64,000 bases of DNA from assembly GCF_013122565.1 (NCBI RefSeq), contig NZ_CP053258.1; one strand, written 5' to 3'. Shown piece by piece: positions 3,102 through 55,104 of this stretch. A model generated the notes under the pieces. The model was not told where the DNA came from. It did no database searches and worked only from the letters and a program-made list of their open reading frames with translations. The first letter of the stretch is position 1, and each line of letters begins with the position of its first letter. This DNA is from Escherichia coli. GTDB lineage: Bacteria > Pseudomonadota > Gammaproteobacteria > Enterobacterales > Enterobacteriaceae. The position numbers were made by a program, and so were the translations under genes.

Positions 3102-3311
3102 ATGGGCAAATTAGGTGAAAACGTTCCGCTTCTTATCGATAAAGCCGTAGATTTCATGGCATCAAGCCAGGCGTTCCGGGAGTATCTGAAAAAACTTCCT
3201 CCCCGTAACGCGATTCCGTCCGGAATACCCGATGAAAGCGTGCCGTTATATCTACAACGTCTGGAGTATTATCGTCGGCTTTATCGGCCGAAGCAGGTAG
3301 AGGGGCAGTAA
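3102..3311 (+). CDS. yibT: Small protein YibT
   Basis: 69-aa [34 protein letters not shown]...; SD-like ACGGAG upstream; position between mtlR and yibL matches K-12 order. Confidence 0.7.
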
Positions 3312-3910: not shown

Positions 3911-5058
3911 TATTGCATTGCTTTATAAGCGGTTACCGCCTCGGATACAACCTCGCTGTTGGCATCAAGACCGGAAATCTGTGCCAGCGCTGCCTGCGGA
4001 CCTTTGTCAGCGATCAGTGCTGCCAGTTCCTGAGCCTGCGGATCATCTTCACTGCGGAAGTGCATTGCAGCGGCAATACCTTCAATCAGGTTTTTATGTG
4101 GCAGACCATATTCCAGCGTACCGAGCAGTGGCTTGATCAGACGGTCGCCAGCACTCAGTTTACGCAGCGGCTGACGGCCTACGCGCTCAACATCATCTTT
4201 CAGATACGGGTTCTCAAAACGACCGAGGATTTTCTGGATGTACGCCGCATGTTTGTCTGCGTCAAAGCCGTAACGCTTGATCAGTACCGCGCCGCTTTCT
4301 TCCATCGCACCTTTTACCACCGCGCGGATTTTCTCGTCGAGAATCGCGTCACGAATGGTCTGATGACCCGCCAGTTTTCCGAGGTACGCGGTTATAGCAT
4401 GACCTGTGTTCAGGGTGAAGAGTTTACGTTCGACAAATGCCATCAGGTTGTCGGTTAACTCCATGCCTGGGATGTTCGGCAGTGCGCCTTTGAACTGCGT
4501 TTTATCGACAATCCATTCGCTGAAGGTTTCTACCGTCACTTCCAGAGGATCGTTAGTTGCCGAAGCCGAAGGCGGCACGATGCGGTCAACGGCGGAATCG
4601 ACAAAGCCAACGTGTTCTTCTACCCACGTTTTGGCGTCTTCTGGCAGGGCGTTCATCACATGGCCTTTCAGCTGCGTGGTACCGCGTACCATGTTTTCAC
4701 AGGCGATGATGTTCAGCGGGGATTCATTACCTTGTTCTTTACGTTTCACCAGCCCTTTGGCGATAGCCGGAGCAATACGTTCCAGCACAACCGGGCCAAC
4801 GGCGGTAGTGACTAAATCGACCTGAGCAATCAGATCAACGACATCATCACCAATGCTGCTGACAGCATTGACGCCGGAAACGGTATCAACCTGCTCGGTT
4901 TCACCAACCACATGAACCTGATAGCTATGACGGGCATTCAGGGCATCAAGTACCACCTGATTGACATCGGCAAACGTCAGTTGGATACCCGCGTCTGCCA
5001 GCAGTTTACCGATAAAGCCACGACCGATATTACCTGCGCCAAAATGTAATGCTTTCAT
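3910..5058 (-). CDS. mtlD: Mannitol-1-phosphate 5-dehydrogenase
   Basis: ORF track gives 3910..5376 (488 aa); true start taken as [17 protein letters not shown] (382 aa, Rossmann GxGxxG). The upstream extension runs through REP sequences. Confidence 0.9.
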
Positions 5059-5084
5059 AGTATTAACCTTCATCAATGTTTTTA

Positions 5085-5285
<201 letters not shown>

Positions 5286-5287
5286 GA

Positions 5288-7201
5288 TTACTTATGACCT
5301 GCCAGCAGTTCCAGCACTTCATCCACGCTGGTGGTGTGTGCCAGACGCTCGATGACGGACTCATCATCCAGTGCATTGGTCAGGCTGGTGATAACCTGAA
5401 TGTGCTCGTTGTTGCGGGCAGCAATACCAATCACCAGACGGGCAATGTCATCTTCTTCTTCACCGAAGCGCACGCCTTCCGGGTACTGGCAGAACACGAC
5501 GCCCGTTTTCAGTACGCGATCTTTCGCTTCAACCGTACCGTGTGGCACCGCGATAGACTCACCCAGATAAGTCGGGGTCAGTTTTTCACGATCCAACATC
5601 GCCTGAACGTATTCCGGCTCAACGTAACCGCCTTTCACCAGCTGCTCGCCAGCAAAACGAATCGCTTCTTCTTTGGTTGCCGCTTTGCGACCGAGGAAGA
5701 TGTTCTCCGCGCCCAGTTTGAATAGGTTAGCACTGGAATCGTCAAAGCTGTCTTTCAGACTGTCTTTCACTTTCACTTCGTTTTCAGTATGGCGCTGGGC
5801 AGCAACCAGACGTTCGGTCAGGCTGGTGTACAGGCCACTGTCGAGGAAGTTGGTCAGCGAAATATGCTGCGCCTGCGGAACCTGGCGCATAGCGCGTTCG
5901 GTCAGGTCACGGTGAGTGATGACGAGGTCCACATCTGGCGGCAGGTTGTTGATCGCGCTGTTAGTGACCGAAATCTGCGACAGACCTGCATCCTGAATTT
6001 TCTTACGCAGCACGCCTGCGCCCATCGCACTTGAACCCATACCGGCGTCACAGGCAACGATGATTTTACGTACGTGGCTCAGGTCGTTAGTCACATCACC
6101 CGCAGACAGCGGAGATGCGCCTTTAGACTCAGCTTTCATGTCCTGCATACGACGAGTTGCTGCTTCAATATCATCTTCTTCTTTCACTTTGCTGGTTTTC
6201 AGCAAAATAGCAGAGACAACGAAGGAGACAGCCATCGCCGCACACACACCCGCGATGTTAGCGAAATAAGCACCTTTTGGTGTCATCGCCAGTACCGCAA
6301 GGATAGAACCCGGAGATGCCGGAGAAACCAGACCACCGCCCAGGATAGTCAGCGTGAACACGCCAGTCATACCGCCGAGGATAACGGCCAGGATCAGACG
6401 CGGATTCATCAGCACATACGGGAAGTAGATTTCGTGGATACCACCCAGGAAGTGGATGATTGCCGCACCACCCGCAGACTGTTTAGCACTACCACGACCA
6501 AAGAACATGTACGCCAGCAGCACGCCCATACCTGGACCTGGGTTAGCTTCAATCAGGAAGAAGATGGATTTACCCAGTTCATGGGACTGCTGAATACCCA
6601 GCGGCGAGAAGATACCGTGGTTAATGGCGTTGTTGAGGAACAGGATTTTCGCCGGTTCAACAAAGATAGATGCCAGCGGCAGCATGTCATGGACAACCAT
6701 GAAGTTAACGCCCGCAGCCAGCATTTTGGACAGGGCTTCAACAATCGGGCCAATGCCGAGGAATGCCAGAATGGCGAGGATCATCCCGATGATGCCTGCG
6801 GAGAAGTTATTCACCAGCATCTCAAAACCGGATTTGATCTTACCGTCTACCCAGCGGTCGAAGTGCTTAATGCACCAGCCGCCCAGCGGACCTGCAATCA
6901 TAGAGCCGAGGAACATCGGCATGTCTGCGCCGACGATAACGCCCATGGTGGTGATGGCACCGACTACGCCGCCACGTTCGCCGCCTACCAGCTTACCACC
7001 GGTATAACCGATCAGCAGCGGCAGGAGGTAAGTGATCATCGGTCCGACTAGCTTCGCCAGCGTCTCGTTCGGTAACCACCCTGTTGGAATAAATAATGCG
7101 GTGATGATACCCCACGCGATAAACGCGCCGATATTTGGCATCACCATGTTGCTGAGGAAACGACCAAAGCTTTGCACTTTGATCTTAATATCGGATGACA
7201 T
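5288..7201 (-). CDS. mtlA: PTS mannitol-specific EIICBA component
   Basis: 637-aa [40 protein letters not shown]...; recognised as MtlA. Confidence 0.95.
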
Positions 7202-7344
7202 AAAAACACCCCTTCTTATGTTTGCTGTCGCGCAGGCTGGAAGCCCGAGGTTTTTTGTTAATGTGGCGGCAGAGGTAGCCGGACCTTGTGGATAGTGCGA
7301 AATCTGGCACTGAATCGGTTAACTGTCCAGTCGTCGGCCTTTTG

Positions 7345-7521
7345 TGTGATATTAGTCACATAAATATAGGGGGTAGAGAGGTAATTGACGTGATGTCCAT
7401 CACAAAACACTTGTGTAAAAAAGCAACAAGCCGGCTGTTTTCGCTAAAAATGGCATTTAAATGTGAGTAATGTCACATTTTTGTTTTGATGGTTTGTTGA
7501 ATCTTTGTGATCTGAATCACA
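7345..7521. promoter_or_regulatory. mtlA promoter region with CRP-consensus sites
   Basis: TGTGA-N6-TCACA matches at 7345..7360 (tgtgatattagtcaca) and 7506..7521 (tgtgatctgaatcaca); near-match at 7389..7404 (cgtgatgtccatcaca). The mtl operon is known to be CRP-dependent with several CRP sites. Confidence 0.7.
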
Positions 7522-7737
7522 AGATATTTTCTTACGGCGTTCAGCTGATGTGATCTACAGCATGTTATGCCTTCGTCATAAAATCGTTATGTAACTAAGC
7601 AACTCATCACCTCTAAAAATTATTCTTTGGTGTTATGGCGAGAATCGCGAACCCGGATTATTGTCAAAATATCAGCCTGACTCCCTTCTGGCTGCCAGCC
7701 AAAAAACAACACTGATAAACGTGAATCCGAGGCAGAT

Positions 7738-8100
7738 ATGTTTCTAAACTATTTCGCGTTAGGAGTGCTGATCTTCGTCTTTCTGGTGATTTTTTATGGA
7801 ATCATCGCGATACATGACATCCCTTATCTGATTGCCAAAAAGCGCAACCATCCCCATGCCGACGCTATTCATACGGCGGGCTGGGTGAGCCTGTTTACTC
7901 TGCATGTTATCTGGCCGTTTCTGTGGATTTGGGCGACGCTCTATCAACCGGAGCGCGGGTGGGGCATGCAGTCACATGTTGCGTCGCAGGAGAAAGCGAC
8001 TGACCCGGAAATCGCCGCACTTTCTGACCGAATTTCCCGGCTGGAGCACCAACTCGCCGCCGAGAAAAAGACTGACTATTCCACGTTCCCGGAGATCTAA
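7738..8100 (+). CDS. yibI: DUF3302 small inner-membrane protein YibI
   Basis: 120-aa [48 protein letters not shown]...; stop is 2 nt before the yibH start. Confidence 0.85.
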
Positions 8101-8102
8101 TT

Positions 8103-9239
8103 ATGGATCTATTGATTGTTTTAACTTACGTGGCGCTGGCGTGGGCGGTCTTTAAAATCTTCCGCATTCCAGTAAATCAGTGGACGCTGGCGACGGCGGC
8201 GCTGGGAGGCGTGTTTCTGGTGAGTGGTTTGATTTTGTTGATGAACTACAACCACCCTTACACTTTTACCGCGCAAAAGGCTGTGATAGCGATCCCCATC
8301 ACGCCACAGGTGACGGGAATTGTTACTGAAGTCACTGACAAGAATAATCAGCTTATTCAAAAGGGCGAGGTACTTTTTAAGCTCGACCCGGTTCGTTACC
8401 AGGCGCGAGTTGACAGACTTCAGGCTGACCTGATGACGGCGACGCATAATATAAAGACGCTGCGCGCCCAGCTCACTGAAGCGCAGGCCAACACCACCCA
8501 GGTTTCAGCGGAGCGCGACCGTCTGTTTAAAAATTATCAACGTTATCTGAAAGGCAGCCAGGCGGCGGTGAATCCGTTCTCGGAACGTGACATCGACGAT
8601 GCGCGGCAAAATTTCCTCGCGCAGGATGCGCTGGTGAAAGGCTCGGTGGCGGAGCAGGCGCAGATCCAGAGCCAGCTCGACAGTATGGTTAACGGCGAGC
8701 AATCGCAGATTGTGAGCTTAAGAGCGCAACTTACTGAAGCAAAATATAATCTTGAGCAGACTGTCATTCGCGCGCCGAGCAATGGCTACGTTACTCAGGT
8801 ACTGATCCGCCCAGGCACATACGCAGCTGCCTTGCCGCTGCGTCCGGTGATGGTCTTCATCCCCGAGCAAAAACGGCAAATTGTCGCCCAATTTCGGCAA
8901 AACTCGCTGTTACGTCTGAAACCCGGCGATGATGCGGAAGTGGTGTTTAACGCGCTACCTGGGCAGGTGTTTCACGGCAAACTGACCAGTATTTTACCTG
9001 TCGTGCCAGGCGGTTCTTATCAGGCGCAGGGGGTATTGCAATCATTAACGGTCGTGCCCGGCACGGACGGTGTGCTGGGAACCATTGAACTGGACCCTAA
9101 CGATGATATCGATGCCTTACCCGACGGCATCTACGCCCAGGTGGCAGTTTACTCCGACCATTTCAGCCATGTTTCGGTGATGCGTAAGGTGCTGCTAAGA
9201 ATGACCAGTTGGATGCATTATCTTTATTTGGATCATTGA
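8103..9239 (+). CDS. yibH: HlyD-family membrane-fusion-like protein YibH
   Basis: 378-aa ORF; N-terminal TM segment, central coiled coil, C-terminal beta domain; paralog of the ORF at 16271..17407. Confidence 0.85.
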
Positions 9240-9309
9240 GACTTATATCACCTGTGTTTTGCGTGAGCCTGAGCCATACTGATATTTTTCCTCGCACAAA
9301 GGACTCGGC

Positions 9310-9918
9310 ATGAAACTCGTCGGTAGCTACACCAGCCCGTTTGTACGCAAACTTTCTATTCTGTTGTTAGAAAAGGGCATAACTTTCGAATTTATTAATG
9401 AACTGCCCTATAACGCGGACAACGGCGTGGCGCAATTTAACCCGTTAGGAAAAGTGCCGGTGCTGGTGACCGAAGAGGGCGAATGCTGGTTTGATTCGCC
9501 GATCATCGCTGAATATATTGAGTTAATGAATGTCGCTCCGGCGATGTTGCCGCGCGATCCGCTGGAGTCGTTGCGGGTGCGCAAAATTGAGGCGCTGGCG
9601 GATGGCATCATGGATGCCGGGCTGGTATCGGTGCGTGAACAGGCGCGTCCGGCGGCGCAGCAGTCTGAAGATGAATTGTTACGTCAGCGTGAGAAAATCA
9701 ACCGTAGCCTTGATGTGCTGGAAGGATATCTGGTCGATGGCACACTCAAAACCGATACGGTCAATCTGGCGACTATCGCCATTGCCTGTGCCGTTGGATA
9801 TCTCAATTTCCGCCGCGTTGCGCCAGGCTGGTGTGTCGACCGCCCACACTTAATCAAACTGGTCGAAAACCTGTTTAGCCGCGAAAGTTTTGCTCGCACC
9901 GAACCGCCAAAGGCTTGA
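9310..9918 (+). CDS. yibF: Glutathione S-transferase family protein YibF
   Basis: 202-aa [31 protein letters not shown]... (GST N-terminal thioredoxin-like fold). Confidence 0.85.
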
Positions 9919-10015
9919 TGCGCGATATGTCCTCCTGACCCATCTCACGTTACAATCCGTGGTTATGTTAAACGCCCTTCTCCGTGTGAGAGGGCCTTGA
10001 TCAGCCAGGTTTCCT

Positions 10016-11407
10016 ATGACAACCGAAACGCGTTCCCTCTATAGTCAACTTCCGGCTATTGATCGCTTATTGCGCGATAGCTCCTTCCTTTCTTTGCGTG
10101 ATACTTATGGTCACACCCGCGTAGTGGAATTGCTGCGTCAGATGCTTGACGAAGCGCGAGAAGTGATTCGTGACAGCCAGACGCTGCCTGCGTGGTGTGA
10201 AAACTGGGCGCAAGAAGTCGATGCCCGGTTGACGAAAGAGGCGCAGAGCGCGCTGCGTCCGGTGATCAACCTGACGGGAACCGTGCTGCATACCAACCTT
10301 GGTCGAGCTTTACAGGCGGAAGCCGCGGTGGAAGCCGTTGCGCAGGCTATGCGTTCGCCAGTGACCCTCGAGTACGATCTGGACGACGCCGGACGCGGAC
10401 ATCGCGATCGGGCGCTGGCGCAGTTGCTGTGCCGCATTACGGGGGCGGAAGATGCCTGTATCGTTAATAACAATGCGGCGGCGGTGTTATTGATGTTGGC
10501 GGCCACTGCCAGCGGGAAAGAGGTGGTGGTATCTCGCGGCGAACTGGTGGAGATTGGCGGCGCGTTTCGTATTCCCGATGTTATGCGTCAGGCAGGCTGC
10601 ACCCTACACGAAGTAGGGACCACCAACCGCACGCACGCGAATGATTATCGTCAGGCGGTGAATGAAAATACCGCGCTGTTGATGAAAGTACATACCAGTA
10701 ACTACAGCATTCAGGGGTTCACCAAAGCGATAGACGAAGCGGAACTGGTGGCGCTCGGCAAAGAACTGGATATTCCCGTAGTGACTGATTTAGGCAGTGG
10801 CTCGCTGGTCGATCTTAGCCAGTACGGTTTGCCGAAAGAGCCAATGCCGCAGGAGTTGATTGCGGCGGGCGTCAGTCTGGTGAGCTTCTCCGGCGACAAG
10901 CTGTTAGGCGGGCCGCAGGCAGGAATTATTGTTGGTAAAAAAGAGATGATCGCCCGCCTGCAAAGCCACCCGCTGAAGCGTGCATTACGCGCGGATAAAA
11001 TGACCCTTGCGGCGCTGGAAGCTACGTTGCGTCTTTATTTACACCCTGAAGCTCTGAGTAAAAAATTACCGACCCTGCGCCTGCTTACCCGCAGCGCAGA
11101 GGTCATTCAAATCCAGGCACAACGTTTACAGGCTCCCCTTGCCGCACATTACGGCGCGGAGTTTGCAGTCCAGGTTATGCCATGTCTTTCGCAGATTGGC
11201 AGTGGTTCGCTGCCGGTTGATCGCCTGCCGAGCGCGGCATTAACGTTTACACCCCATGATGGACGCGGTAGCCACCTTGAGTCATTAGCCGCCCGCTGGC
11301 GTGAATTGCCAGTGCCGGTGATTGGTCGTATTTATGACGGACGATTGTGGCTGGATTTACGCTGCCTTGAAGATGAGCAACGGTTTTTGGAGATGTTGTT
11401 GAAATGA
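10016..11407 (+). CDS. selA: L-seryl-tRNA(Sec) selenium transferase
   Basis: 463-aa [45 protein letters not shown]...; ATGA overlap with selB. Confidence 0.95.
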
Positions 11408-13248
11408 TTATTGCGACTGCCGGACACGTTGACCACGGCAAAACAACCTTATTGCAGGCGATTACTGGCGTAAATGCCGATCGTCTGCCGGAAGAAAAAA
11501 AGCGCGGCATGACTATCGATCTCGGCTATGCCTACTGGCCGCAGCCGGATGGCCGCGTGCCTGGTTTTATCGACGTGCCCGGTCATGAAAAGTTTCTTTC
11601 CAACATGCTGGCGGGCGTTGGTGGTATCGATCACGCGCTGTTGGTGGTGGCGTGCGATGACGGCGTGATGGCACAGACCCGTGAGCATCTGGCGATTTTG
11701 CAGCTGACCGGTAACCCGATGCTGACAGTGGCGCTGACCAAGGCCGATCGCGTGGACGAAGCGCGTGTTGATGAGGTTGAACGTCAGGTAAAGGAGGTGC
11801 TGCGGGAATACGGTTTTGCTGAGGCAAAACTGTTTATCACCGCAGCAACCGAAGGTCGGGGAATTGATGCCCTGCGCGAGCATCTGCTTCAGTTACCAGA
11901 ACGTGAGCACGCCAGCCAACATAGTTTCCGCCTCGCGATCGACCGCGCATTTACCGTAAAAGGTGCCGGGCTGGTCGTCACCGGTACGGCGTTAAGCGGG
12001 GAAGTGAAGGTAGGCGATTCACTCTGGCTGACTGGTGTAAATAAACCGATGCGTGTACGTGCACTGCATGCACAAAACCAGCCAACAGAAACCGCTCATG
12101 CCGGCCAGCGTATCGCGCTTAACATCGCGGGGGATGCGGAAAAAGAGCAGATTAACCGTGGCGACTGGCTGCTTGCCGATGTGCCGCCAGAGCCGTTCAC
12201 GCGGGTGATTGTCGAGCTTCAAACCCATACGCCGCTGACCCAGTGGCAGCCGCTGCATATTCACCACGCCGCCAGCCACGTTACGGGACGCGTTTCGCTG
12301 CTGGAAGATAACCTTGCCGAGCTGGTGTTCGACACGCCGCTGTGGCTGGCGGATAACGATCGCTTAGTGTTGCGCGATATCTCGGCCCGCAATACGCTCG
12401 CGGGGGCGCGTGTGGTGATGCTTAACCCGCCGCGTCGCGGTAAACGTAAGCCGGAATATCTGCAATGGCTGGCGTCACTGGCACGGGCGCAGAGCGATGC
12501 CGATGCGTTATCTGTTCATCTGGAACGCGGCGCGGTTAACCTTGCGGATTTCGCCTGGGCGCGCCAGCTCAACGGCGAAGGGATGCGCGAATTGCTGCAA
12601 CAGCCGGGCTATATTCAGGCTGGTTATAGCTTGTTGAATGCGCCGGTTGCCGCCCGCTGGCAGCGGAAAATTCTCGACACATTAGCGACTTATCATGAGC
12701 AACATCGCGATGAACCTGGCCCTGGGCGCGAACGTCTGCGACGTATGGCGTTGCCAATGGAAGATGAAGCGCTGGTACTGTTGCTGATTGAAAAGATGCG
12801 CGAAAGCGGCGACATCCTCAGTCATCACGGTTGGCTGCATCTGCCAGATCACAAAGCGGGCTTCAGCGAAGAGCAGCAGGCCATCTGGCAAAAAGCAGAG
12901 CCGCTGTTTGGTGACGAGCCGTGGTGGGTGCGTGATCTGGCAAAAGAGACGGGTACCGACGAGCAGGCAATGCGCCTGACTCTACGCCAGGCGGCGCAGC
13001 AAGGAATAATTACCGCGATCGTTAAAGATCGTTATTACCGTAACGATCGGATTGTCGAATTTGCCAATATGATCCGCGATCTCGATCAGGAATGTGGCTC
13101 GACCTGCGCGGCGGATTTCCGCGATCGCTTAGGCGTAGGCCGAAAGCTGGCAATTCAGATTCTGGAATATTTTGACCGCATTGGCTTTACACGTCGTCGT
13201 GGAAATGATCATTTATTGCGCGACGCATTATTATTTCCGGAAAAATAA
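11404..13248 (+). CDS. selB: Selenocysteine-specific translation elongation factor
   Basis: 614-aa [25 protein letters not shown]... (GTPase G1 motif), length matches SelB. Confidence 0.95.
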
Positions 13249-13303
13249 GGCGTTGATTAATTCAAATTAAACGAGAAGTAGATAAAAATTGTTATAAATA
13301 AAA

Positions 13304-13328
13304 AAGCACATTTCAATGTGCTTTTTTA
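13304..13328 (+). terminator. Rho-independent terminator downstream of selB
   Basis: Stem aagcacat (13304..13311) / atgtgctt (13316..13323), loop ttca, followed by T-run. Confidence 0.7.
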
Positions 13329-13419
13329 TTGCGAATGATTAAAAGAGTAATAGCGCTCATATTTTAAATTAAAATATTTTGTAAGCTTCGCGTCATTTTA
13401 TACTCGTTCAGGGTGTTTT

Positions 13420-13696
13420 ATGGCAGCCTCCATCTTTTTTATCCCTTCAGATAATGCCTTTGGCGTAGATTCTTTAAAAGATGCAATGAATATGATGATA
13501 TGGAATATGGCTTTCACCGTACATGGATGAACTGACGAAGAAAGTGGATATCCCGGCAGGCCTACGCGACCTGAACGTGAAAGAAGAAGATTTCGCGGTA
13601 CTGGCGACTAATGCCCTGAAAGATGCCTGTGGCTTTACTAACCCGATCCAGGCAACTCACGAAGAAATTGTGGCGATTTATCGCGCCGCAATGTAA
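13420..13696 (+). pseudogene. yiaY: Remnant of Fe-dependent alcohol dehydrogenase gene yiaY (N-terminal ~35 codons and C-terminal 56 codons, internal deletion with frame change)
   Basis: 13420..13530 encodes MAASIFFIPSDNAFGVDSLKDAMNMM...HG then stop; from 13526 in the +1 frame [56 protein letters not shown] to the stop at 13694..13696. Both ends resemble YiaY termini as I recall them; the ~300 central codons are missing. Confidence 0.7.
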
Positions 13697-13860
13697 TCAT
13701 CATTCCCACAACGGCTGGCAAATTGTCAGCCGCTTTTTCAACTATCTCTGTAATCCTTGCCCGTAAATTCGTGATAGCTGTCGTAAAGCTGTTACCGACT
13801 GGCGAAGATTTCGCCAGTCACGTCTACCCTTGTTATACCTCACACCGCAAGGAGACGATC

Positions 13861-15399
13861 ATGACCAATAATCCCCCTTCAGCACAGATTAAGCCCGGCG
13901 AGTATGGTTTCCCCCTCAAGTTAAAAGCTCGCTATGACAACTTTATTGGCGGCGAATGGGTAGCCCCTGCCGACGGCGAGTATTACCAGAATCTGACGCC
14001 GGTGACCGGGCAGCTGCTGTGCGAAGTGGCGTCTTCGGGCAAACGAGACATCGATCTGGCGCTGGATGCTGCGCACAAAGTGAAAGATAAATGGGCGCAC
14101 ACCTCGGTGCAGGATCGCGCGGCGATTCTGTTTAAGATTGCCGATCGAATGGAACAAAACCTTGAGCTGTTAGCGACGGCTGAAACCTGGGATAACGGCA
14201 AACCCATTCGCGAAACCAGTGCTGCCGACGTGCCGCTGGCGATTGACCATTTTCGCTATTTCGCCTCGTGTATTCGGGCGCAGGAAGGTGGGATCAGTGA
14301 AGTTGATAGCGAAACCGTGGCCTATCATTTCCATGAACCGTTAGGCGTGGTGGGGCAGATTATCCCGTGGAACTTCCCGCTGCTGATGGCGAGCTGGAAA
14401 ATGGCTCCCGCGCTGGCGGCGGGCAACTGTGTGGTGCTGAAACCCGCACGTCTTACCCCGCTTTCTGTACTGCTGCTAATGGAAATCGTCGGTGATTTAC
14501 TGCCGCCGGGCGTGGTGAACGTGGTCAACGGCGCAGGTGGGGAAATTGGCGAATATCTGGCGACCTCGAAACGCATCGCCAAAGTGGCGTTTACCGGCTC
14601 AACGGAAGTGGGCCAACAAATTATGCAATACGCCACGCAAAACATTATTCCGGTGACGCTGGAGCTGGGCGGCAAATCGCCAAATATCTTCTTTGCTGAC
14701 GTGATGGATGAAGAAGATGCCTTTTTCGATAAAGCGCTGGAAGGCTTTGCACTGTTTGCCTTTAACCAGGGCGAAGTTTGCACCTGTCCAAGCCGTGCTT
14801 TAGTGCAGGAATCTATCTACGAACGCTTTATGGAACGCGCCATCCGCCGTGTCGAAAGCATTCGTAGCGGTAACCCGCTCGACAGCGTGACGCAAATGGG
14901 CGCGCAGGTATCTCACGGGCAACTGGAAACCATCCTCAATTACATTGATATCGGCAAAAAAGAGGGCGCAGATGTGCTTACCGGCGGGCGGCGCAAGCTG
15001 CTGGAAGGCGAACTGAAAGATGGCTACTACCTCGAACCGACGATTTTGTTTGGTCAGAACAATATGCGCGTGTTCCAGGAGGAGATTTTTGGCCCGGTGC
15101 TGGCGGTGACCACCTTTAAAACGATGGATGAGGCGCTGGAGCTGGCGAACGACACGCAATATGGCCTGGGCGCGGGCGTCTGGAGCCGCAACGGTAATCT
15201 GGCCTATAAGATGGGGCGCGGCATTCAGGCCGGGCGCGTGTGGACCAACTGCTATCACGCTTACCCGGCACATGCTGCGTTTGGTGGCTACAAACAATCA
15301 GGTATCGGTCGCGAAACCCACAAGATGATGCTGGAGCATTACCAGCAAACCAAGTGCCTGCTGGTGAGCTACTCAGATAAACCGTTGGGGCTGTTCTGA
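13861..15399 (+). CDS. aldB: Aldehyde dehydrogenase B
   Basis: ORF track 13723..15399; start trimmed to [34 protein letters not shown] (512 aa); ALDH family with catalytic Cys context. Confidence 0.95.
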
Positions 15400-15427
15400 T
15401 ATAAGAAGCTGGTCGCATTGGGTATTC

Positions 15428-15518
15428 ATTGCCTGATGCGACGCTTACGCGTCTTATCATGCCTACGGGAACCTGACCGTAGGCCGGATAAGGCGTACAC
15501 GCCGCATCCGGCATAAAC
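15428..15518. repeat. REP elements downstream of aldB
   Basis: gcctgatgcgacgcttacgcgtcttatcatgcctac and gtaggccggataaggcgtacacgccgcatccggc REP-type palindromes. Confidence 0.8.
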
Positions 15519-15941
15519 AAAGCGCACGTTGTTACAATTTACGTTTTAAACCTACGTGCGCAATAACCCAGACTACGCCAACAGAAGTGCGTTTCTGGGG
15601 CGTGTTTTGTCAGGAGTTTAATCTCGCGTTTCGATGGTGAGCGGGCGAACCAGGCCGTAAATCACCATTGGCGTTCCGAGGCCAATCAGCAATAAACGGT
15701 AGATAATTGAAGGTTTAATACGCTTAATCTGTATTGTGGATGTTTTACTGGAGTTATTCATTAGTTTGGCCAATAGTTCTATTATTTCAATATGATAAGT
15801 CTCAGTCTGTTGAAAATCCACGCAGTACACTTCAGAAAGTATATAAAAAACAATATGTCGTTATATAAATAAGGAAATTGCACTGCATCATGGCATTTCA
15901 TAATATGCGTTAATTGTTTTTTTATATTCTTTGAGGAAAAT

Positions 15942-16265
15942 ATGTTCCTGGACTATTTTGCACTGGGAGTGCTTATTTTTGTATTTCTGGTGATATTCTA
16001 TGGGATTATTATTTTACATGATATTCCCTACCTGATTGCTAAAAAACGTAATCATCCACATGCCGACGCCATTCATGTTGCTGGTTGGGTGAGTCTTTTT
16101 ACGCTGCATGTTATCTGGCCATTTTTGTGGATTTGGGCCACGCTTTACCGCCCGGAGCGGGGATGGGGAATGCAAAACCATGACTCCTCCGTTGTGCAAC
16201 TACAACAGCGTATTGCCGGGCTGGAGAAACAGCTCGCTGACATCAAATCCTCTTCTGCCGAGTAA
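15942..16265 (+). CDS. yiaW: DUF3302 small inner-membrane protein YiaW (paralog of YibI)
   Basis: 107-aa [48 protein letters not shown]..., nearly identical N-terminus to the ORF at 7738. Confidence 0.85.
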
Positions 16266-16270
16266 TACTT

Positions 16271-17407
16271 ATGGATTTACTGATTATTTTGACCTATGTG
16301 GCTTTCGCATGGGCAATGTTTAAGATCTTCAAAATTCCTGTAAATAAATGGACCATTCCCACCGCGGCCCTGGGTGGAATATTTATTGTCAGCGGTTTAA
16401 TTCTGTTAATGAACTATAACCATCCGTATACCTTTAAAGCGCAAAAAGCGGTTATTTCTATTCCTGTTGTCCCACAGGTGACAGGCGTGGTGATCGAAGT
16501 GACGGATAAGAAAAATACGCTGATTAAAAAAGGTGAGGTGCTATTTCGACTGGACCCGACGCGTTATCAGGCGCGGGTGGATCGGCTGATGGCGGATATC
16601 GTTACCGCAGAACATAAACAGCGGGCGTTGGGCGCAGAGTTAGATGAGATGGCGGCGAATACTCAGCAGGCAAAGGCCACGCGGGATAAATTCGCTAAAG
16701 AGTATCAGCGTTACGCACGCGGCAGCCAGGCGAAAGTAAACCCGTTTTCAGAACGCGATATTGATGTGGCGCGGCAAAATTATCTGGCGCAGGAAGCCTC
16801 CGTAAAGTCATCGGCGGCGGAACAAAAACAGATCCAGAGCCAGCTGGATAGCCTGGTGTTGGGTGAACATTCTCAAATCGCCAGCCTGAAAGCGCAGCTC
16901 GCGGAAGCAAAATATAACCTTGAGCAGACGATAGTGCGTGCGCCGAGCGATGGTTATGTGACCCAGGTGCTGATTCGTCCGGGTACCTATGCCGCGTCGC
17001 TGCCGCTACGTCCGGTGATGGTGTTTATACCCGATCAGAAACGACAAATTGTGGCGCAGTTCCGTCAGAACTCCTTGCTGCGACTGGCTCCTGGCGACGA
17101 TGCGGAAGTGGTGTTTAATGCTCTGCCAGGTAAGGTATTCAGCGGTAAGCTGGCAGCCATTAGTCCAGCCGTTCCCGGCGGAGCTTATCAGTCGACCGGC
17201 ACCTTACAGACGTTAAACACAGCGCCGGGTTCAGATGGCGTTATCGCGACCATTGAACTGGATGAGCATACTGATTTGAGCGCATTACCAGACGGTATTT
17301 ACGCCCAGGTGGCGGTCTACTCTGATCATTTCAGCCATGTCTCGGTGATGCGCAAAGTACTGTTACGCATGACCAGCTGGGTGCATTACCTTTATCTCGA
17401 TCATTAA
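16271..17407 (+). CDS. yiaV: HlyD-family membrane-fusion-like protein YiaV (paralog of YibH)
   Basis: 378-aa [39 protein letters not shown]...; same length and architecture as the ORF at 8103. Confidence 0.85.
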
Positions 17408-18378
17408 TCTTCGCTTTCCGCCGCTTGTTCAGGCCGCAGTTGCTGCGACTGAGCAAGCTGGTGGCGAATTTCACGCAGCATTTCATCCAGCACATACTGG
17501 ACCCGCCAGGGCTGGTATTCCCGTTTACGGAAGATAGCCACCAGATCCAGCCACCATTCATACGGGTGCTGAAAGCAGGGCACCAGCGTGCCGTCTTGCA
17601 GGTCGCTCTGCACACTTTTGTCTGGCGCAAACACAATCCCCAGGTGATTTCGTGCCAGCTCCAGCGCAGATTGCGTGTTGTCGCAAACGTAATTTCCCTT
17701 CACGCGATAATCCCGCACATCTTTACTCCCGGCGACGTTGAAGCGCCAGATATTCGCGTCGTCGATCATCATCGAGTCGATCAAAATACAGGAGTGATGT
17801 TCGAGTTCGTCAGGACGGCTAATGGGATGTTTCGCAAGATAGCGCTGGCTGGCATAAGCGGTTACGGCATATTGTGTAATAAAACTGGCAACCAGCGATT
17901 CATCTTTTGGTGGGGCGTAGCTGATTAAAACATCACAATCATCGGGAAATTCGACGCCTTCATAAAAGGCATTACGCTCAAGATTGCAGGTTTTTAGCGA
18001 TAAGGTGATATCACCGATATCTTTAATTTTATCGATAACATGTTTGGATAAATAGGTAATTATGCCGGTTGGGGCGTAGATGGTGACCCGACCACGTTTC
18101 TCATGCTTATAATCTGCAATAAAATTATTAAGCTGCTCGTTTCTGTCCAGCATGTCGTTGATGTACGGTAATAGCGCGGTGCCAAAAGGTGTGAGCATCA
18201 GCTGCCGGGTGGTGCGGTCAAAGACTTTTAAACCCACTTTTGATTCAAAATCAGCAAGATATTTGCTGACGTTGGCCTGTGCGATGCCAAGTACAGTCGC
18301 GGCATGGCTGATATTTTCACTGGCAGCGATTACCGAGATAATTTTTAACTCCCGGTACTTAAGTTGTAATTTTGTCAT
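17404..18378 (-). CDS. yiaU: LysR-family transcriptional regulator YiaU
   Basis: 324-aa [48 protein letters not shown]... (N-terminal HTH); 4-nt convergent overlap with yiaV. Confidence 0.85.
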
Positions 18379-18500
18379 CGCAACAGCCCAATTATATATA
18401 ATTTTATATATTACTATATAAATATGAATCTTGCACCGGAGAAATTGTAAGCATTACTATGCCGACTCTTTTTATCTTATTTTAAAATGGAATACCGGAC

Positions 18501-19241
18501 ATGTTAATTAACCGCAATATTGTGGCGTTATTTGCGTTGCCTTTTATGGCAAGCGCAACTGCTTCTGAATTATCCATTGGTGCTGGTGCGGCTTATAATG
18601 AATCGCCTTATCGCGGTTATAATGAAAATACAAAGGCAATTCCGCTGATTAGTTATGAAGGTGATTCTTTTTATGTTCGTCAGACCACGTTAGGTTTTAT
18701 TCTGTCGCAAAGTGAAAAAAATGAACTTAGCCTGACCGCATCCTGGATGCCGCTGGAATTTGACCCTGCCGATAATGACGATTATGCCATGCAACAGCTT
18801 GATAAGCGTGATAGTACGGCTATGGCGGGGGTTGCCTGGTATCACCACGAGCGTTGGGGAACCGTGAAAGCCTCTGCGGCTGCGGACGTTCTGGATAACA
18901 GCAACGGCTGGGTGGGGGAGCTATCGGTTTTCCACAAAATGCAGATAGGTCACCTGTCGCTGACACCTGCGCTGGGCGTTATCTATTATGACGAGAATTT
19001 CAGTGACTATTACTATGGCATTTCAGAGAGTGAGTCCCGTCGTAGCGGTCTGGCAAGTTATTCCGCGCAGGATGCATGGGTGCCCTATGTCAGCCTGACG
19101 GCAAAATACCCGATAGGAGAGCACGTCGTATTGATGGCGAGCGCCGGATACAGCGAGCTGCCGGAAGAGATTACCGACAGCCCGATGATTGATCGTAATG
19201 AGAGTTTTACCTTTGTCACCGGCGTGAGCTGGCGTTTTTAA
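18501..19241 (+). CDS. yiaT: MipA/OmpV-family outer-membrane protein YiaT
   Basis: 246-aa ORF with signal peptide MLINRNIVALFALPFMASATASE and C-terminal ...SWRF beta-barrel terminus. Confidence 0.85.
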   Translation: MLINRNIVALFALPFMASATASELSIGAGAAYNESPYRGYNENTKAIPLISYEGDSFYVRQTTLGFILSQSEKNELSLTASWMPLEFDPADNDDYAMQQLDKRDSTAMAGVAWYHHERWGTVKASAAADVLDNSNGWVGELSVFHKMQIGHLSLTPALGVIYYDENFSDYYYGISESESRRSGLASYSAQDAWVPYVSLTAKYPIGEHVVLMASAGYSELPEEITDSPMIDRNESFTFVTGVSWRF

Positions 19242-19244
19242 TTC

Positions 19245-19375
19245 ACCGATGGATGTCGGTGCGGCTGGCCTACGCTCTCGCACCGACTCGTATGCCTGAT
19301 AAGACGTTTTAAGCGTCGCATTAGGCAATGTACTCCCTACGTTGGATGCGGCGCGAGCGCCTTATCCAACCTCCG
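19245..19375. repeat. REP elements between yiaT and the GH127 gene
   Basis: REP-type palindromes (gcctgataagacg...cgtcgcattaggc; ggatgcggcgcgagcgccttatcc); overlaps the 3' end of the GH127 ORF. Confidence 0.7.
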
Positions 19376-21341
19376 GATGGCGATGCTTTTCCTCATTCAC
19401 CCAGATCCGCATTTCACCTTCACCCCGGTTAGCCCAGCTAAACCACGGGATAAATGTCAGAGTTTGCGGCTGGCGTTTGGCTGGGGCATAGTCGTAATGC
19501 CACAACGGTTGTTGTTCTGGATTGCTCTGTTCATACCGGTAACCCGGTGCCTGGATTAAGATCTTATGGCTGAACAATCCCTTACCTTCAAATGTCGTAA
19601 ATGGCGCATCGGCGGGCAGCCACAGATTATGCAGTGACTCGCCGTTGTCAGCCTGTTCCAGGCAATACACCAGCGGGCCGCGCTGAATCGCCACTTTTCC
19701 GGCGACGTGACGCACCAGCGGGTTACCGTAAACGCGGCGTACCGGCATCGGCAAAGTCAGATTCAGCGTATCGCCCTCCTGCCATTCGCGGGTAATGTGC
19801 AAATACCCTTTACGAATATCCTGCTCGACCTCTTCCCCATTCAATATGATCTGCGGCTGTGTGCACCAGTCCGGCAGACGTAAAGCCAGCGTATGACGTA
19901 CCGGCTGGGGCGATTCAACCGCAATCGTCACCTGCTCCTGCCACGGATAGTTCCCGCTAACCCGCAGGCGCAGCGTGCCATTTTCTACCGGCACTTCCAT
20001 GCTGTTTCCTGCGTATATGTTGATATACAACGCATCTTCACGCGGCGTGTAGAGATAATGACCGATTGAGGTCAGCACGCGGGCGATATTTGGCGGACAA
20101 CAAGCGCAGCCAAACCAACGCTGGCGGATCGGCTTAATGTGATCGTAGATATGGTTGAATTTCAGCGATTTTGGATGTACTTCCAGCGGATTCACATAGA
20201 AGAAATGTTTGCCATCCAGCGCCATGCCGCCGAGCACAGTGTTGTACAGTGCGCGCTCCATCACATCGGCATATTGACTGTCGCCTTCCATTTCCAGCAT
20301 TCGTCGGGCGAACATCATCAGGCCGATGGAAGCACAGCTTTCGGCGTAAACCGTGTCATTCGGCAGATCGTAATCGCTGCTGAACGCTTCGCCGCTACTC
20401 TGTGAGCCAATGCCACCGGTAATATATAACTGACGCTGGGCCATATTGTTCCACAGCCGCAGGCAGTCCTGACGCTTGCTGTCATCGTGACTTAAACGCG
20501 CGAGATGCGCGACGCCGGTCATCAGGTAGACAAAACGTACCGCGTGACCGATGGCGGTTTGCTGTTGCGCAAGGGGCAAATGTGCCTGGCTGTAGGCTTT
20601 GTCTTTCACCATCCACGCCGGGCCGTAGGTGTGCCAGTGCGAGGTCTGCCCGCGCTTTTCATATTCCTGGTCGTAATAGTGCGGTTGCGCACCACGCTGT
20701 TCGACAAAATAGTTCGTCAATGCCAGGTAGCGCGGCTCTTCGGTCACTTCATACAGACGCATCAGTGCCAGTTCAATTTCCGGGTGACCAGGGTAACCGT
20801 GTAACTTACTTTCATCTGGACCAAATACGCTGTCGATATGATCGGCCAGACGGCAAACCACTTCCAGCAAGCGCCGCTTGCCCGTGGCCTGGAAGAAGGC
20901 GACTCCAGCTTCAATCAGATGACCGGCGCAGTAAAGTTCATGACACTCCGCCAGATTGCTCCAGCGTTCTTCGGGCGCTTTTACCGTAAAGTAAGTATTG
21001 AGATAGCCGTCTTCGCACTGGGCGGAGGCGATCAGTTCGATTACCTCGTCGGCGGTTTTTTCCAGTTCGGCGTCCGGCTTCTGGCACAGCGACCAGGCTA
21101 CCGCTTCCAGCCATTTGGCGACGTCGCTGTCCTGAAACACCATCCCGTAAAATTCACCCTCCTGAAGTCCGGCGGCAATGCGAAAGTTTTCAATCGCATG
21201 GCTGGGTTCCGCTTCTGGGATACGATCGTTCAAGGCATCCCACTGATAAGGAATCACCACGTCGCGGACCAGTTGTTGGTACTGACCGAGGAACGGATCG
21301 CTGACCGTCAGTTTATGCAGATCGACTTCCGAAATGTTCAT
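19362..21341 (-). CDS. Glycoside hydrolase family 127 (DUF1680; beta-L-arabinofuranosidase-like)
   Basis: ORF track 19362..21365; start trimmed to MNISEVD (ATG at 21341) because AAGGAG lies 6 nt upstream. Contains YAESCASIG and WFGCACCPPNIAR motifs, matching the Glu/Cys and Cys-Cys signatures I associate with GH127. Confidence 0.75.
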   Translation of the reverse strand: MNISEVDLHKLTVSDPFLGQYQQLVRDVVIPYQWDALNDRIPEAEPSHAIENFRIAAGLQEGEFYGMVFQDSDVAKWLEAVAWSLCQKPDAELEKTADEVIELIASAQCEDGYLNTYFTVKAPEERWSNLAECHELYCAGHLIEAGVAFFQATGKRRLLEVVCRLADHIDSVFGPDESKLHGYPGHPEIELALMRLYEVTEEPRYLALTNYFVEQRGAQPHYYDQEYEKRGQTSHWHTYGPAWMVKDKAYSQAHLPLAQQQTAIGHAVRFVYLMTGVAHLARLSHDDSKRQDCLRLWNNMAQRQLYITGGIGSQSSGEAFSSDYDLPNDTVYAESCASIGLMMFARRMLEMEGDSQYADVMERALYNTVLGGMALDGKHFFYVNPLEVHPKSLKFNHIYDHIKPIRQRWFGCACCPPNIARVLTSIGHYLYTPREDALYINIYAGNSMEVPVENGTLRLRVSGNYPWQEQVTIAVESPQPVRHTLALRLPDWCTQPQIILNGEEVEQDIRKGYLHITREWQEGDTLNLTLPMPVRRVYGNPLVRHVAGKVAIQRGPLVYCLEQADNGESLHNLWLPADAPFTTFEGKGLFSHKILIQAPGYRYEQSNPEQQPLWHYDYAPAKRQPQTLTFIPWFSWANRGEGEMRIWVNEEKHRHPEVG

Positions 21342-21351
21342 CTTGTGCTCC

Positions 21352-22752
21352 TTAAGGCTGTACATGACGCTGACGCAGGTCGGTAGCTATGCGTGACATC
21401 ATAGGATTATTGAGTTTGCAAAAGCGGATCGCCCCTGCCAGCAGCAGGTGAAATAGCGCAGGCAGTAATGTTTCCATCGCCGCGATCCCGCCAAGCGAAC
21501 TGGCGGTCTGGTTTTCCATGCCTGGCTGGTAGGCGACAAAAATAAACAGCAGGCTGATGATCCCGGCGCTGGAGGCCCAGGCCAGCTTGATGAAAAACAG
21601 ATTGAAGGCGAAGTTCATGCCGGAAGAACGTACGCGGGTTTTCCACTCGCCGTAGTCATCGGCAAAGGCCATCAATGAGAAGTGCAGTGGCAATGTGAAG
21701 CCAAGAATTACGCCATTACCGAGGATCACCGCCAGCCACAGCGTTTGATAAGCCGGGCCGGAGGGCAGGAACCACATCAACACCGCCAGCGCAGCGAGGA
21801 GCAGGTTGGTGTAGTAGTAAATTTTGACGGTATCGAAACGCCGCGTTAACGGGCTGACAATCACCGAGCCGATAATGGAGGCGAAGGTGACCATGGTGAA
21901 GAACAGCGACGTGTAGCCCGTACTGCCTTGTAAGACGTAGGTAATGAAGTACATATACCCACCGCCGCGAATATTAAAGACGTTAATCAGCAGGAAAGAC
22001 ATGACCAGCATCAGCAGCAGTTGGTCGTTGTTCCGCAGCCCGGCAAGATGTTCGCGCAGGGTAAATTTCCCCATTGTGGAGAGCGGCACCCGTTCACGAA
22101 CCCAGAAAAAACAGCACAGGAACATCACCACGGCAATGGCGCACAATACGCCGACGCCCAGTTGATAGCCGCGTGCAGCGTTGCCCTGACCGAAGAGATC
22201 TACCATCCACGGTAAGCCTACCGAAACCAGAAATCCCGCTACGCCGCAGAGAACGAATCGCCAGGACTGGCAGGAGATCACTTCATTGTGGCGGGTGGTC
22301 ATGGTGTTGATCAGCGCGCAGTACGGTACGTTGATGGCGGTATAACCGACTGAAAGGAGCAGGTAAGTACCGAACGCCCAGGCGATTTTTACTCCCATGC
22401 TGGCATCTGGCACGGTGAACGTCAGGATGCCGATAATGCCGATGGGAATGGCAATCCATAGCTGCCACGGACGAAAGCGCCCCCAGCGACTTTGCGTCCG
22501 GTCGGCAATGACGCCCATCACCGGGTCGGAGATGGCATCAAACACGCGCAGTGCAATAAACAGCGTGCCAACCAGCGCCGGAGTTAATCCAAAAACGTCG
22601 GTGTAGAAAAAGGTGAGAAAATTCATGATCAGGCAAGTTATTACGGTGCCGCCTGCGTCACCCAGGCCGTAGCCTATTTTTTCCCGTACAGATAACGCAT
22701 CGTCAATTTTACCTTTAGCGATATCAGCGGTAGTAATCGGTGTAGAGGTCAT
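21352..22752 (-). CDS. MFS transporter, glycoside-pentoside-hexuronide (GPH):cation symporter family
   Basis: 466-aa ORF; N-terminal [10 protein letters not shown]...[20 protein letters not shown] motif typical of MelB/UidB-type symporters; about 12 TM segments; stop overlaps the SD of the downstream hydrolase. Confidence 0.8.
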
Positions 22753-22884
22753 AGATATTCCTCGTGAATAGGGAGCAATTTTTAGTTTTATTGCAATGAC
22801 CTGATTAATTCTGCCGTGAACGGGAATATCAACAAGGCGAGAAAAGAGTAAAAAAAGGTGACGATTCCGACCTGTATTTAAAAG

Positions 22885-22900
22885 TGTGAAATGGATCAGG
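22885..22900. promoter_or_regulatory. CRP-like half-consensus site in divergent promoter region between GPH transporter and AraC regulator
   Basis: tgtgaaatggatcagg (TGTGA-N6-TCAGG) in an AT-rich intergenic region; weaker than the mtl sites. Confidence 0.35.
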
Positions 22901-22977
22901 TGAAATTAATGTTTTTGATTAATAATCAAAAGGTAATGTGTTTAATCCTTAATAAATAAGCGGGAAATTACATATCA

Positions 22978-23793
22978 ATGCTCGAATTATCCATGACGTT
23001 ACCGATTAAAGTGCAAAATGGTGGATTATTTATTTCCCGTGGCGTAGGGAGGCATCCGGCAAGGCGGCTGGAGTCATGGGAAATTATCTTTGTCGAAAAA
23101 GGTCGATTAACGATTCAGGAAGAAGAACGGATATTTCTGGTCGATGCGGGAGAGAGTTTATTACTCTGGCCGAACCGACAGCATGTTGGGGTGGAGGATT
23201 TTCCCGCCGATCTCAAATTTTACTGGCTGCATTTTGAGGTTAAAGCGCCGGACAACGACCCTCGCTGGCTTACTCATCTTAGCGTGCCGCAACAAACGAA
23301 GGTTGCCGATCCGCAGGCGCTGGTGGCCCTGTTTCGCCAGTTCTTAAGCGAACAGGAAAAGCATCAACGCACTCCGGCGCTGGAGTTTATTGTGCTGCTC
23401 ATTTTGCAGCAGCTCACCCGTGACGCGCGTCTTGATGAACAGGCCGATGGCGCAGGCACCACCCTTGCCTGGAAGGCGCAGAAACTGATTCGCACGCAAT
23501 ATCACCGCCCGCTTTCCACGGCGCTTCTGGCCCGCGAGCTGTACTGCAATGCCGATTATCTTGGGCGTGTCTATCGGCGAGTGTTTCATCTGACGCTTAC
23601 AGAAGCAATCCACCGCCAGCGGGTGCGCGAAGCCGAAAAGCTGTTAATTAGCGAAGCTCGATCGCTCACGGAAGTGGCGGCGTTGTGCGGGTTTAATGAC
23701 GTTGGCTATTTCCGGCAGATTTTTCGCAAGCACACCGGTTTAACGCCAGCAGCGTGGAAGCGGCGTTACAGCAAGGAACATATCAATTCGTAG
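22978..23793 (+). CDS. AraC/XylS-family transcriptional regulator
   Basis: 271-aa ORF (true start may be M6 at 22993); N-terminal cupin-like effector domain, C-terminal double HTH (...LTEVAALCGFNDVGYFRQIFRKHTGLTPAAWKRR); divergent from the transporter-hydrolase pair. Confidence 0.8.
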   Translation: MLELSMTLPIKVQNGGLFISRGVGRHPARRLESWEIIFVEKGRLTIQEEERIFLVDAGESLLLWPNRQHVGVEDFPADLKFYWLHFEVKAPDNDPRWLTHLSVPQQTKVADPQALVALFRQFLSEQEKHQRTPALEFIVLLILQQLTRDARLDEQADGAGTTLAWKAQKLIRTQYHRPLSTALLARELYCNADYLGRVYRRVFHLTLTEAIHRQRVREAEKLLISEARSLTEVAALCGFNDVGYFRQIFRKHTGLTPAAWKRRYSKEHINS

Positions 23794-23794
23794 T

Positions 23795-23816
23795 GCCGGG
23801 GCGATGAAGCCCCGGC
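23795..23816. terminator. GC-rich hairpin between convergent AraC-regulator gene and sgbE
   Basis: Stem gccgggg (23795..23801) / ccccggc (23810..23816), 8-nt loop; no clear U-tract, so terminator function is tentative. Confidence 0.4.
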
Positions 23817-23824
23817 GTGAGGGA

Positions 23825-24520
23825 TTACTGCCCGTAATAGGCATTGTCTCCATGCTTACGCAGGTAGTGCTTATCCAGCAGTTCGTTTTGCATGGCAGGG
23901 AGCTGCGGCGCAAGCTGGCGCGAGAACAGGCCCATATAGGCGCACTCTTCCAGCACCACGGCGTTATGCACCGCATCGGCGGCGTTTTTTCCCCAGGCGA
24001 ACGGGCCGTGAGAATGTACCAGTACCGCAGGGATTTGTGCCGGGTTCAGCCCACGCTCTTCGAAGGTTTCAATGATCACTTCGCCGGTCTGGTATTCATA
24101 CTCGCCGTTGATCTCCTCTGCGGTCATCAGGCGCGTGCAGGGGATGGCACCATAGAAATAATCGGCGTGCGTGGTGCCCCAGGCGGGGAGATCCAGCCCG
24201 GCCTGCGACCAGATGGTAGCGTGGCGCGAGTGGGTATGCACAATGCCACCGATTTCGGCATAGCGACGGTAAAGTGCCAGATGCGTTGGCGTATCGGAAG
24301 AGGGCTTTTTGCTACCTTCCACCACCTTGCCGCTGGCTAACTCAACCACCACCATATCGTCGGCGGTCATCACGTCATACTCGACACCGGAAGGTTTAAT
24401 CACCATCCATTGCCGCGTTTCGTCTACCGCGCTGACATTGCCCCAGGTAAACGTCACCAGATGTTGAGCGGGAAGCGCCAGGTTAGCCGCCAGCACGTCG
24501 TTTTTCAGTTGCTCTAACAT
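23825..24520 (-). CDS. sgbE: L-ribulose-5-phosphate 4-epimerase
   Basis: 231-aa [49 protein letters not shown]... (class II aldolase/AraD fold). Confidence 0.9.
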
Positions 24521-55051: not shown

Positions 55052-55055
55052 AAAA

Positions 55056-55092: not shown

Positions 55093-55104
55093 TTTAAGCA
55101 GAGA

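Follow-up and report, generated by a model that had tools for sequence, protein, structure and literature searches.

A truncated yiaY remnant with a divergent 5' block between selB and aldB of Escherichia coli

The selB-aldB interval and its two yiaY stubs

The window considered here, a stretch of 64,000 nucleotides of Escherichia coli DNA (contig NZ_CP053258.1), carries selA, selB, aldB, yiaW, and yiaV in that order and all on the + strand, with a remnant of yiaY between selB and aldB (Table 1). yiaY encodes an Fe-dependent alcohol/L-threonine dehydrogenase, an activity that is redundant with other aldehyde reductases and with threonine-degrading enzymes. The interval between selB and aldB contains only two short open reading frames (ORFs)—one of 36 aa at 13420..13530, whose TGA stop lies at 13528-13530, and one of 57 aa at 13523..13696, whose product ends in ...IVAIYRAAM. 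They mark out a remnant of 277 bp (13420-13696) that comprises yiaY nt 1 to ~107, with a 2-nt insertion, followed directly by yiaY nt ~985-1152.

Table 1. Features in and around the yiaY remnant, in window coordinates
Feature	Position	Strand	Description and basis
selA	10016..11407	+	
selB	11404..13248	+	Intact, 614-aa ORF; 100% identical to one E. coli SelB protein (P0002); last ~50 nt as in typical E. coli
Divergent selB-yiaY spacer	13251..13419	+	69% identity to E. coli-type spacers, 76% to the spacer upstream of c1
selB terminator hairpin (A-run, stem, T-run)	13297..13330	+	Predicted fold -16 kcal/mol, z = -6.3
yiaY 5' fragment (nt 1-107, codons 1-36)	13420..13528	+	79% identity to E. coli yiaY, 83% to c1
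2-nt insertion	13498..13501	+	ATATGG vs GCGG/GCAG in other alleles, from alignments
Junction	13528..13536	+	End points of two local alignments; simplest placement between 13528 and 13529
yiaY 3' fragment (nt 985-1152, residues 329-383 and stop)	13529..13696	+	99.5% identity to intact alleles
yiaY terminator, kept	13712..13740	+	Terminator scan; predicted fold -14.6 kcal/mol, z = -4.4
aldB	13862..15399	+	Intact, upstream region unchanged; ORF, and aldB annotation in homologous loci

Both ORFs were compared with NF007363, the NCBIfam equivalog model for L-threonine dehydrogenase YiaY (383 positions, cut-off 581 bits). The shorter ORF matched model positions 1-27 (E 8e-7, 28.4 bits) and the longer one positions 329-383 (E 2e-30, 106.4 bits), each with partial coverage and below the cut-off, compared with 863 bits for an intact YiaY comparator. 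At the level of Pfam domains, intact YiaY consists of Fe-ADH (PF00465, residues 9-176) and ADH_Fe_C (PF25137, residues 188-383); the 57-aa ORF corresponds to positions 139-194 of the 194 in ADH_Fe_C, that is, to its last 56, and the 36-aa ORF matched no Pfam family. YiaY residues 37-328 are missing from the remnant (nt 108-984 are absent in the alignment), and this deleted part, going by what is established for the Fe-ADH family, takes in the GGGS motif of the NAD-binding region as well as the ligands of the metal. Because the stubs cover only positions 1-27 and 329-383 of the YiaY model and the end of ADH_Fe_C, the catalytic core of the enzyme is wholly absent. Of what a functional YiaY should display, only the position between selB and aldB was found, with neither a full-length model match nor the N-terminal Fe-ADH and metal-binding domain; the locus instead has the makeup of a pseudogene, with collinear homology to both gene ends, a missing middle, and a broken frame.

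Our reference for alignment of the junction was the intact locus of E. coli PapM-32-1 (L002; yiaY at 2018-3169, 1152 nt, WP_164476354.1). This gene occupies the same selB/aldB position as the remnant, agrees with it over the last 168 nt (99.5%), is homologous over the first 27 residues, and is followed by the same terminator and by a yiaY-aldB spacer nearly identical to that of the window; by contrast, the 5' stub and the spacer preceding it are only 69-79% identical between the two. The first-pass annotation, made from the letters of the window, had described yiaY as reduced to a centrally truncated, non-functional remnant of about 277 bp between selB and aldB, and the ORFs, the model matches, and this alignment all agree, leaving a locus that is related to yiaY at both ends and not intact. 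The same annotation was right about the stop of the N-terminal ORF at 13528..13530, the different frame of the C-terminal piece, and the absence of some 300 central codons (292 relative to PapM-32-1). Its count of the last 56 codons is sound in that the 3' end is present, and in detail amounts to 55 YiaY residues plus the stop codon.

The remnant junction is real in the organism and not an assembly error, a point that the first-pass annotation had wished to see settled. The same junction occurs in two of 5426 complete E. coli genomes, C9 (NZ_CP010129) and ET201 (NZ_CP100994), which are finished genomes from different hosts. The 36-aa ORF (SQQ07488.1) moreover has entries in 59 blocks of the public assembly collection (NCBI, ENA, Logan), and all ten loci that we inspected there showed the order selB-remnant-aldB. 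A collapsed or mis-joined region would have to have arisen identically in both finished genomes and in numerous short-read and metagenome assemblies of independent origin, with at least three flanking haplotypes; nothing speaks for such an artefact beyond the general possibility raised earlier, and we give it next to no chance. In C9, the pseudogene RG31_RS01435, like its counterpart in ET201, has the same junction and the same divergent block (99.6% over 282 nt) and is the same allele, set in flanks that diverge from those of the window by 1.3% (left) and 3.8% (right), six SNPs among the latter falling within the final 50 nt of yiaY. In both genomes RefSeq records the 3' piece only, which PGAP names in C9 a pseudogene "L-threonine dehydrogenase, missing N-terminus", with the 5' piece unannotated; annotation pipelines thus detect the 3' stub and miss the 5' one. 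We found no description of the remnant in the literature searched.

The joint and the divergent 5' block

Relative to PapM-32-1, homology on the 5' side stops at 13528 (yiaY nt 107) and homology on the 3' side begins at 13528 (nt 984), the two sharing a single T, which corresponds to a deletion of ~877 nt or 292 codons. This places the joint at 13528/13529, inside the range 13515..13530 suggested by the first-pass annotation; the flanking microhomology that it had proposed to look for comes to 0-1 nt only, and the joint is illegitimate. The parental sequences at the two break points read CCGTACATTGAT before and TGTCACTGAC after the break on the 5' side (yiaY nt 96-125), and CCATCCG before and TGAACTGGCGAAG after it on the 3' side (nt 971-1000), and they contain no longer microhomology that yields the observed product. 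CCGT and TGA were considered as microhomologies at both break points and rejected, as either would predict another product. An imperfect match between ACTGAC and ACTGGC at 13531-13536, 3-8 nt 3' of the joint, leaves the placement uncertain by a few bases. Every carrier examined has A at 13535, with no variation there, and among the 5426 complete E. coli genomes no intact yiaY has A at the equivalent site; this base is either a mutation that followed the event or part of the joint. Since the true 5' parent was not found, the precise position of the break, the length of the microhomology, and the actual size of the deletion are all estimates from proxies, namely E. coli yiaY and the c1 allele described below. 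The 2-nt insertion at ~13498-13501 by itself frameshifts the 5' fragment, and the two stubs are out of frame with each other with or without it; therefore, no YiaY enzyme can be made from them.

The two sides of the joint differ sharply in their relationship to other E. coli. The block at 13251-13528, comprising the spacer and the 5' fragment, is ~72% identical to the ~5370 matching complete E. coli genomes, and its divergence sets in 2 nt past the selB stop, whereas the end of selB, and everything from the 3' fragment onward, is 98-99.5% identical. Private changes number ~12 in the 107 nt of the 5' fragment vs 1 in the 168 nt of the 3' fragment (Fisher P = 7e-5). Those in the codons of the 5' fragment comprise 8 non-synonymous and 2 synonymous changes, and the 8 replacements hit residues that are otherwise conserved across three genera, which suggests relaxed constraint on the sequence. 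The non-synonymous excess is a trend that does not reach significance against the pooled other lineages (8 vs 2, P = 0.13), and we rejected the idea that dN/dS is significantly raised on the window branch; because of this, the odd N-terminus could also derive from a functional but divergent donor gene. A change from AGGAG to AGGGTG weakens the Shine-Dalgarno sequence, and the loop of the selB terminator is shorter by 11 nt than its counterpart in typical E. coli, with the same short loop in c1. A paralogue elsewhere in the genome was rejected as a source, there being one yiaY place per genome.

The first-pass annotation had noted that the N-terminal fragment departs from the usual YiaY start, as it does (79% identity, 8 private amino-acid replacements), and had read the departures as decay. 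The evidence does not support that reading, on four counts: the whole of 13251-13528 is divergent, the 3' stub, just as non-functional, is 99.5% identical to intact alleles, the block is almost invariant among the carriers, and 22 of the differences are common to c1. Much the same evidence bears on the more general history in which an ordinary E. coli yiaY lost its middle in place and its 5' stub then drifted by neutral decay. The remnant is non-functional, and its 5' stub, with a frameshift and 8 replacements at conserved residues, looks as such a history would have it; but the divergence takes in the spacer and begins abruptly at the selB stop, the 3' stub is pristine (P = 7e-5), carriers with flanks 1.3-3.8% apart share an invariant block, and a divergence of ~25% is far above the 1-4% seen elsewhere in the locus within E. 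coli. We consider in-situ decay very improbable, and take the asymmetry between the 5' and 3' sides, together with the near-invariance among the twelve carriers compared, to rule out decay after the deletion. Near-invariance among those carriers also means that the block has not been decaying since the junction formed, and the 22 differences common to the independent c1 allele mean that they were inherited and are not new damage. A simple internal deletion within a single parental allele does not fit a left block with ~72-79% and a right one with 99.5% identity to E. coli. The description of the gene as internally deleted therefore holds for the missing middle and is otherwise too simple, because the halves have different ancestries. 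From these comparisons, we infer that the 5' block was already old and foreign when the joint formed, and it was probably already defective as well.

Relatives of the block and movement of the core

The closest relative that we found lies in genome 18KM2445 (NZ_CP151004; L026 2844-5813), where selB is followed by two yiaY copies, a frameshifted c1 and an intact c2, and then by fic, with no typical yiaY. The c1 copy (AACG31_RS01045; L026 3022-4171) is 1150 nt long, owes its frameshift to an additional T, and shows 84% identity to E. coli yiaY along its whole length; c2 (L026 4532-5683) is 83% identical. As a side observation, c1 and c2 are divergent from each other and each is about equidistant from E. 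coli, Citrobacter, and Salmonella proteins. The window block is 83% identical to c1 in the coding part and 76% in the spacer, shares with it 22 derived sites and the same 11-nt loop deletion, and is its sister in a neighbor-joining (NJ) tree with 100% bootstrap. In the same analysis, the pair falls with the Escherichia alleles, outside both E. coli and E. whittamii (100% bootstrap), and the window branch, with 26 private sites vs 13 for c1, is twice as long. Like the window block, c1 diverges from E. coli straight after the selB stop and is frameshifted; unlike it, c1 is full length, keeps the conserved N-terminal residues, and is followed by the intact, divergent c2. A search with the corrected c1 protein found c1-like proteins in E. 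coli assemblies only, and always frameshifted. These placements point to an origin of the divergent block in an Escherichia-related lineage that is neither E. coli nor E. whittamii, with c1 as its only known relative.

Searches for a donor or an undeleted version were made in several collections. In the protein collection, a query with the frame-corrected N-terminus had no match besides the 36-aa ORF. Against 100,044 species-representative genomes, a degenerate N-terminal DNA pattern retrieved 13 intact orthologues, all at 72-79% identity, from Citrobacter, Salmonella arizonae, E. whittamii, and two "E. coli" representatives, and no window-type allele. This pattern scan gave no match in E. albertii, E. 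fergusonii, E. marmotae, or E. ruysiae, and the donor may be among these species. JGI metagenomes held nothing with either the motif shared with c1 or the window-specific peptide pattern, and the plasmid and phage collections returned only mislabelled chromosomes or a distant Salmonella gene. Neither the 5426 complete E. coli genomes nor the protein collection contained a mosaic intact intermediate. Escherichia SelB proteins all fall in one 90% cluster, in which the members listed are all E. coli.

Comparison of 12 carriers delimited a core at 13144-13649 with one fixed difference only. Between the window and C9, the core differs by 0.2% (a single site), as against 1.3% in the left and 3.8% in the right flank (Poisson P = 2.5e-5). 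The carriers fall into at least three flanking haplotypes, represented by the window together with L004, by the C9 group, and by L007, which has a Fic cassette. Because the core is so much less divergent than the flanks, the joint appears to have a single and recent origin, with a core of ~500 bp that moved between backgrounds; we infer that the join arose once and that the core later spread among E. coli by homologous recombination. With two carriers among 5426 complete genomes, the remnant is rare, and one genome (L027) encodes an identical SelB protein yet has an intact, typical yiaY.

Several observations were made on the surroundings of the locus. A Fic-family gene cassette is a frequent presence/absence polymorphism here: it is inserted after AACTATCTC, past the yiaY terminator and ahead of aldB, in 1573 of the 5426 complete E. 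coli genomes. It occurs in the carrier L007 (3278-4810) and 3' of c2 in 18KM2445, and the empty site in the window is at 13741-13752. Over the last 300 nt of selB (the 12950-13200 region), the window differs from PapM-32-1 by 7-10% with the SelB protein conserved, and this high diversity at the 3' end of selB suggests a recombination-rich or import-rich neighbourhood. For positions 5000-25000 of the window, the best E. coli match has only ~97.4% identity over 20 kb, and the genomes that match best have a further ~9-10 kb of YadA-like or Rhs-associated genes with no counterpart in the window, which makes the region mosaic at a larger scale. In another remnant carrier (L003 5528-6089), yiaW is truncated to 57 aa and adjoined by an IS1 transposase gene. 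Elsewhere in E. coli, the otherwise typical YiaY proteins P0122, P0127, and P0128 have internal tandem duplications (437, 426, and 407 aa, one with a quadruplicated AARLRDC), from which it follows that yiaY has been damaged in several different ways across the species.

Consequences and origin of the joint

The remnant is an ordinary pseudogene, a routine loss of a dispensable gene, and a kind of feature that is well known. Knockouts of yiaY are viable with small effects (PMC3439341, PMC10918650), and loss of YiaY is thus tolerated. The selB terminator, the yiaY terminator, and the region upstream of aldB are all retained, and the neighbouring genes would be unaffected, leaving the loss of YiaY as the likely sole consequence. 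The practical weight of the allele is accordingly small, as YiaY is dispensable, the neighbours are untouched, and the strain is merely YiaY-less. Conservation of the core among carriers, with the native start codon and both terminators kept, might be taken to indicate a new function, such as a micro-protein of 36 or 57 aa or a small RNA transcribed from the yiaY promoter. Recent common origin explains the same conservation, however, the Shine-Dalgarno sequence is weakened, the 36-aa ORF has no Pfam family, the allele is very rare (2/5426 genomes), and no Rfam match at or near the gathering score was found there; a new function is therefore highly unlikely, and an Rfam-known RNA in the block was rejected on the last of these grounds. 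Gathering-level Rfam matches elsewhere in the window (52771-52924, 55050-55478, and 33580-33622) are to sok antitoxin RNA (hok/sok), the cspA 5' thermoregulator, and the ES036 sRNA, which are ordinary E. coli features unrelated to the remnant.

We think it probable that the remnant is a dead, chimeric relic, in which an old, divergent 5' piece of yiaY was joined illegitimately to a native 3' piece and the product then spread. A single illegitimate join at 13528/13529 links codon ~36 of a deeply divergent yiaY allele, which brought its own upstream spacer, with codon 329 of a yiaY of the usual E. coli type; on this account, the 5' block would already have been old before the joining. The route may have been a deletion inside a gene that was already mosaic, or one step during integration of divergent DNA with one homologous and one illegitimate end, after which the ~500-bp core would have been carried among E. 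coli backgrounds by homologous recombination. Against a chimera it can be said that, in principle, the 3' side may once have been divergent too and have lost this divergence through recurring gene conversion with ordinary E. coli DNA.

A source of the two ancestries could also be sought in tandem copies—a divergent copy directly after selB and a native copy behind it, with a deletion that began at nt ~108 in the first copy and ended at nt ~984 in the second. The tandem c1-c2 arrangement at the same locus in 18KM2445 makes such a deletion conceivable, and it would explain why the halves differ in ancestry. Two yiaY copies were found in only one of 5426 complete genomes, however, where the second copy is itself divergent (83%) rather than native, and in no genome does a window-type copy stand beside a native one. 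We judge this route improbable.

If the relic is a chimera, as we favor, it might have arisen in a single event of homology-facilitated illegitimate recombination (HFIR), in which linear DNA entered by one homologous and one illegitimate end and ~1.2 kb were replaced by ~0.28 kb. Either divergent DNA would have been anchored in selB, or ordinary DNA anchored in aldB or in 3' yiaY would have entered a cell with the divergent allele. We hold the single-event origin to be possible but on the unlikely side, and the same goes for these two variants taken jointly. The switch in ancestry falls exactly at the illegitimate junction, a microhomology of 0-1 nt with a loss of ~1 kb resembles experimental E. 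coli events (PMC3240628), and no mosaic intact intermediate turned up in the 5426 complete genomes or the protein collection. On the other hand, such events were measured in E. coli at a very low 3e-10 per recipient, and the authors doubt an evolutionary impact (PMC3240628). No donor was found, and the selB end is perfectly E. coli-like, so that a crossover would be needed in a stretch conserved between very different genomes; a two-step route is, besides, equally compatible with the data.

Whichever route was taken, the locus offers a clean natural case of an illegitimate joint between different ancestries that was later spread by homologous recombination. It also illustrates that a seemingly decayed end of a pseudogene can be a piece of a foreign or ancient allele, which would distort estimates of pseudogene age.

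Among known systems, the closest comparison is with the products of HFIR and with small variable segments of E. coli genomes. In experimental E. coli events, 3 of 4 joints were without homology and deletions were of ~1.1-1.4 kb (PMC3240628), and segments under 500 bp of the "insertion coupled with deletion" type are common in E. coli alignments (PMC3240628). The mechanism behind these small segments in E. coli is unsettled. Set against the features of HFIR products, namely 0-10 bp of microhomology, a loss of ~1 kb, and a foreign segment at the joint, the remnant shows 1 nt, ~877 bp, and the divergent block. A doubtful, more far-reaching reading would make the remnant a natural one-step HFIR scar between unsampled Escherichia-related DNA and native DNA, with the selB-aldB interval then serving as a recurrent entry point for xenologous yiaY (window-type, c1, and c2) from a species yet to be sequenced; we regard it as rather unlikely. 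The remnant resembles HFIR products and small variable segments (PMC3240628) in that a longer stretch of native DNA has given way to a short non-native segment, one boundary lies in conserved sequence and the other is illegitimate, and ~1 kb is lost; it differs from HFIR products in that the "inserted" segment is itself homologous, though divergent, to part of the DNA that was lost, and in that it may have arisen in two steps.
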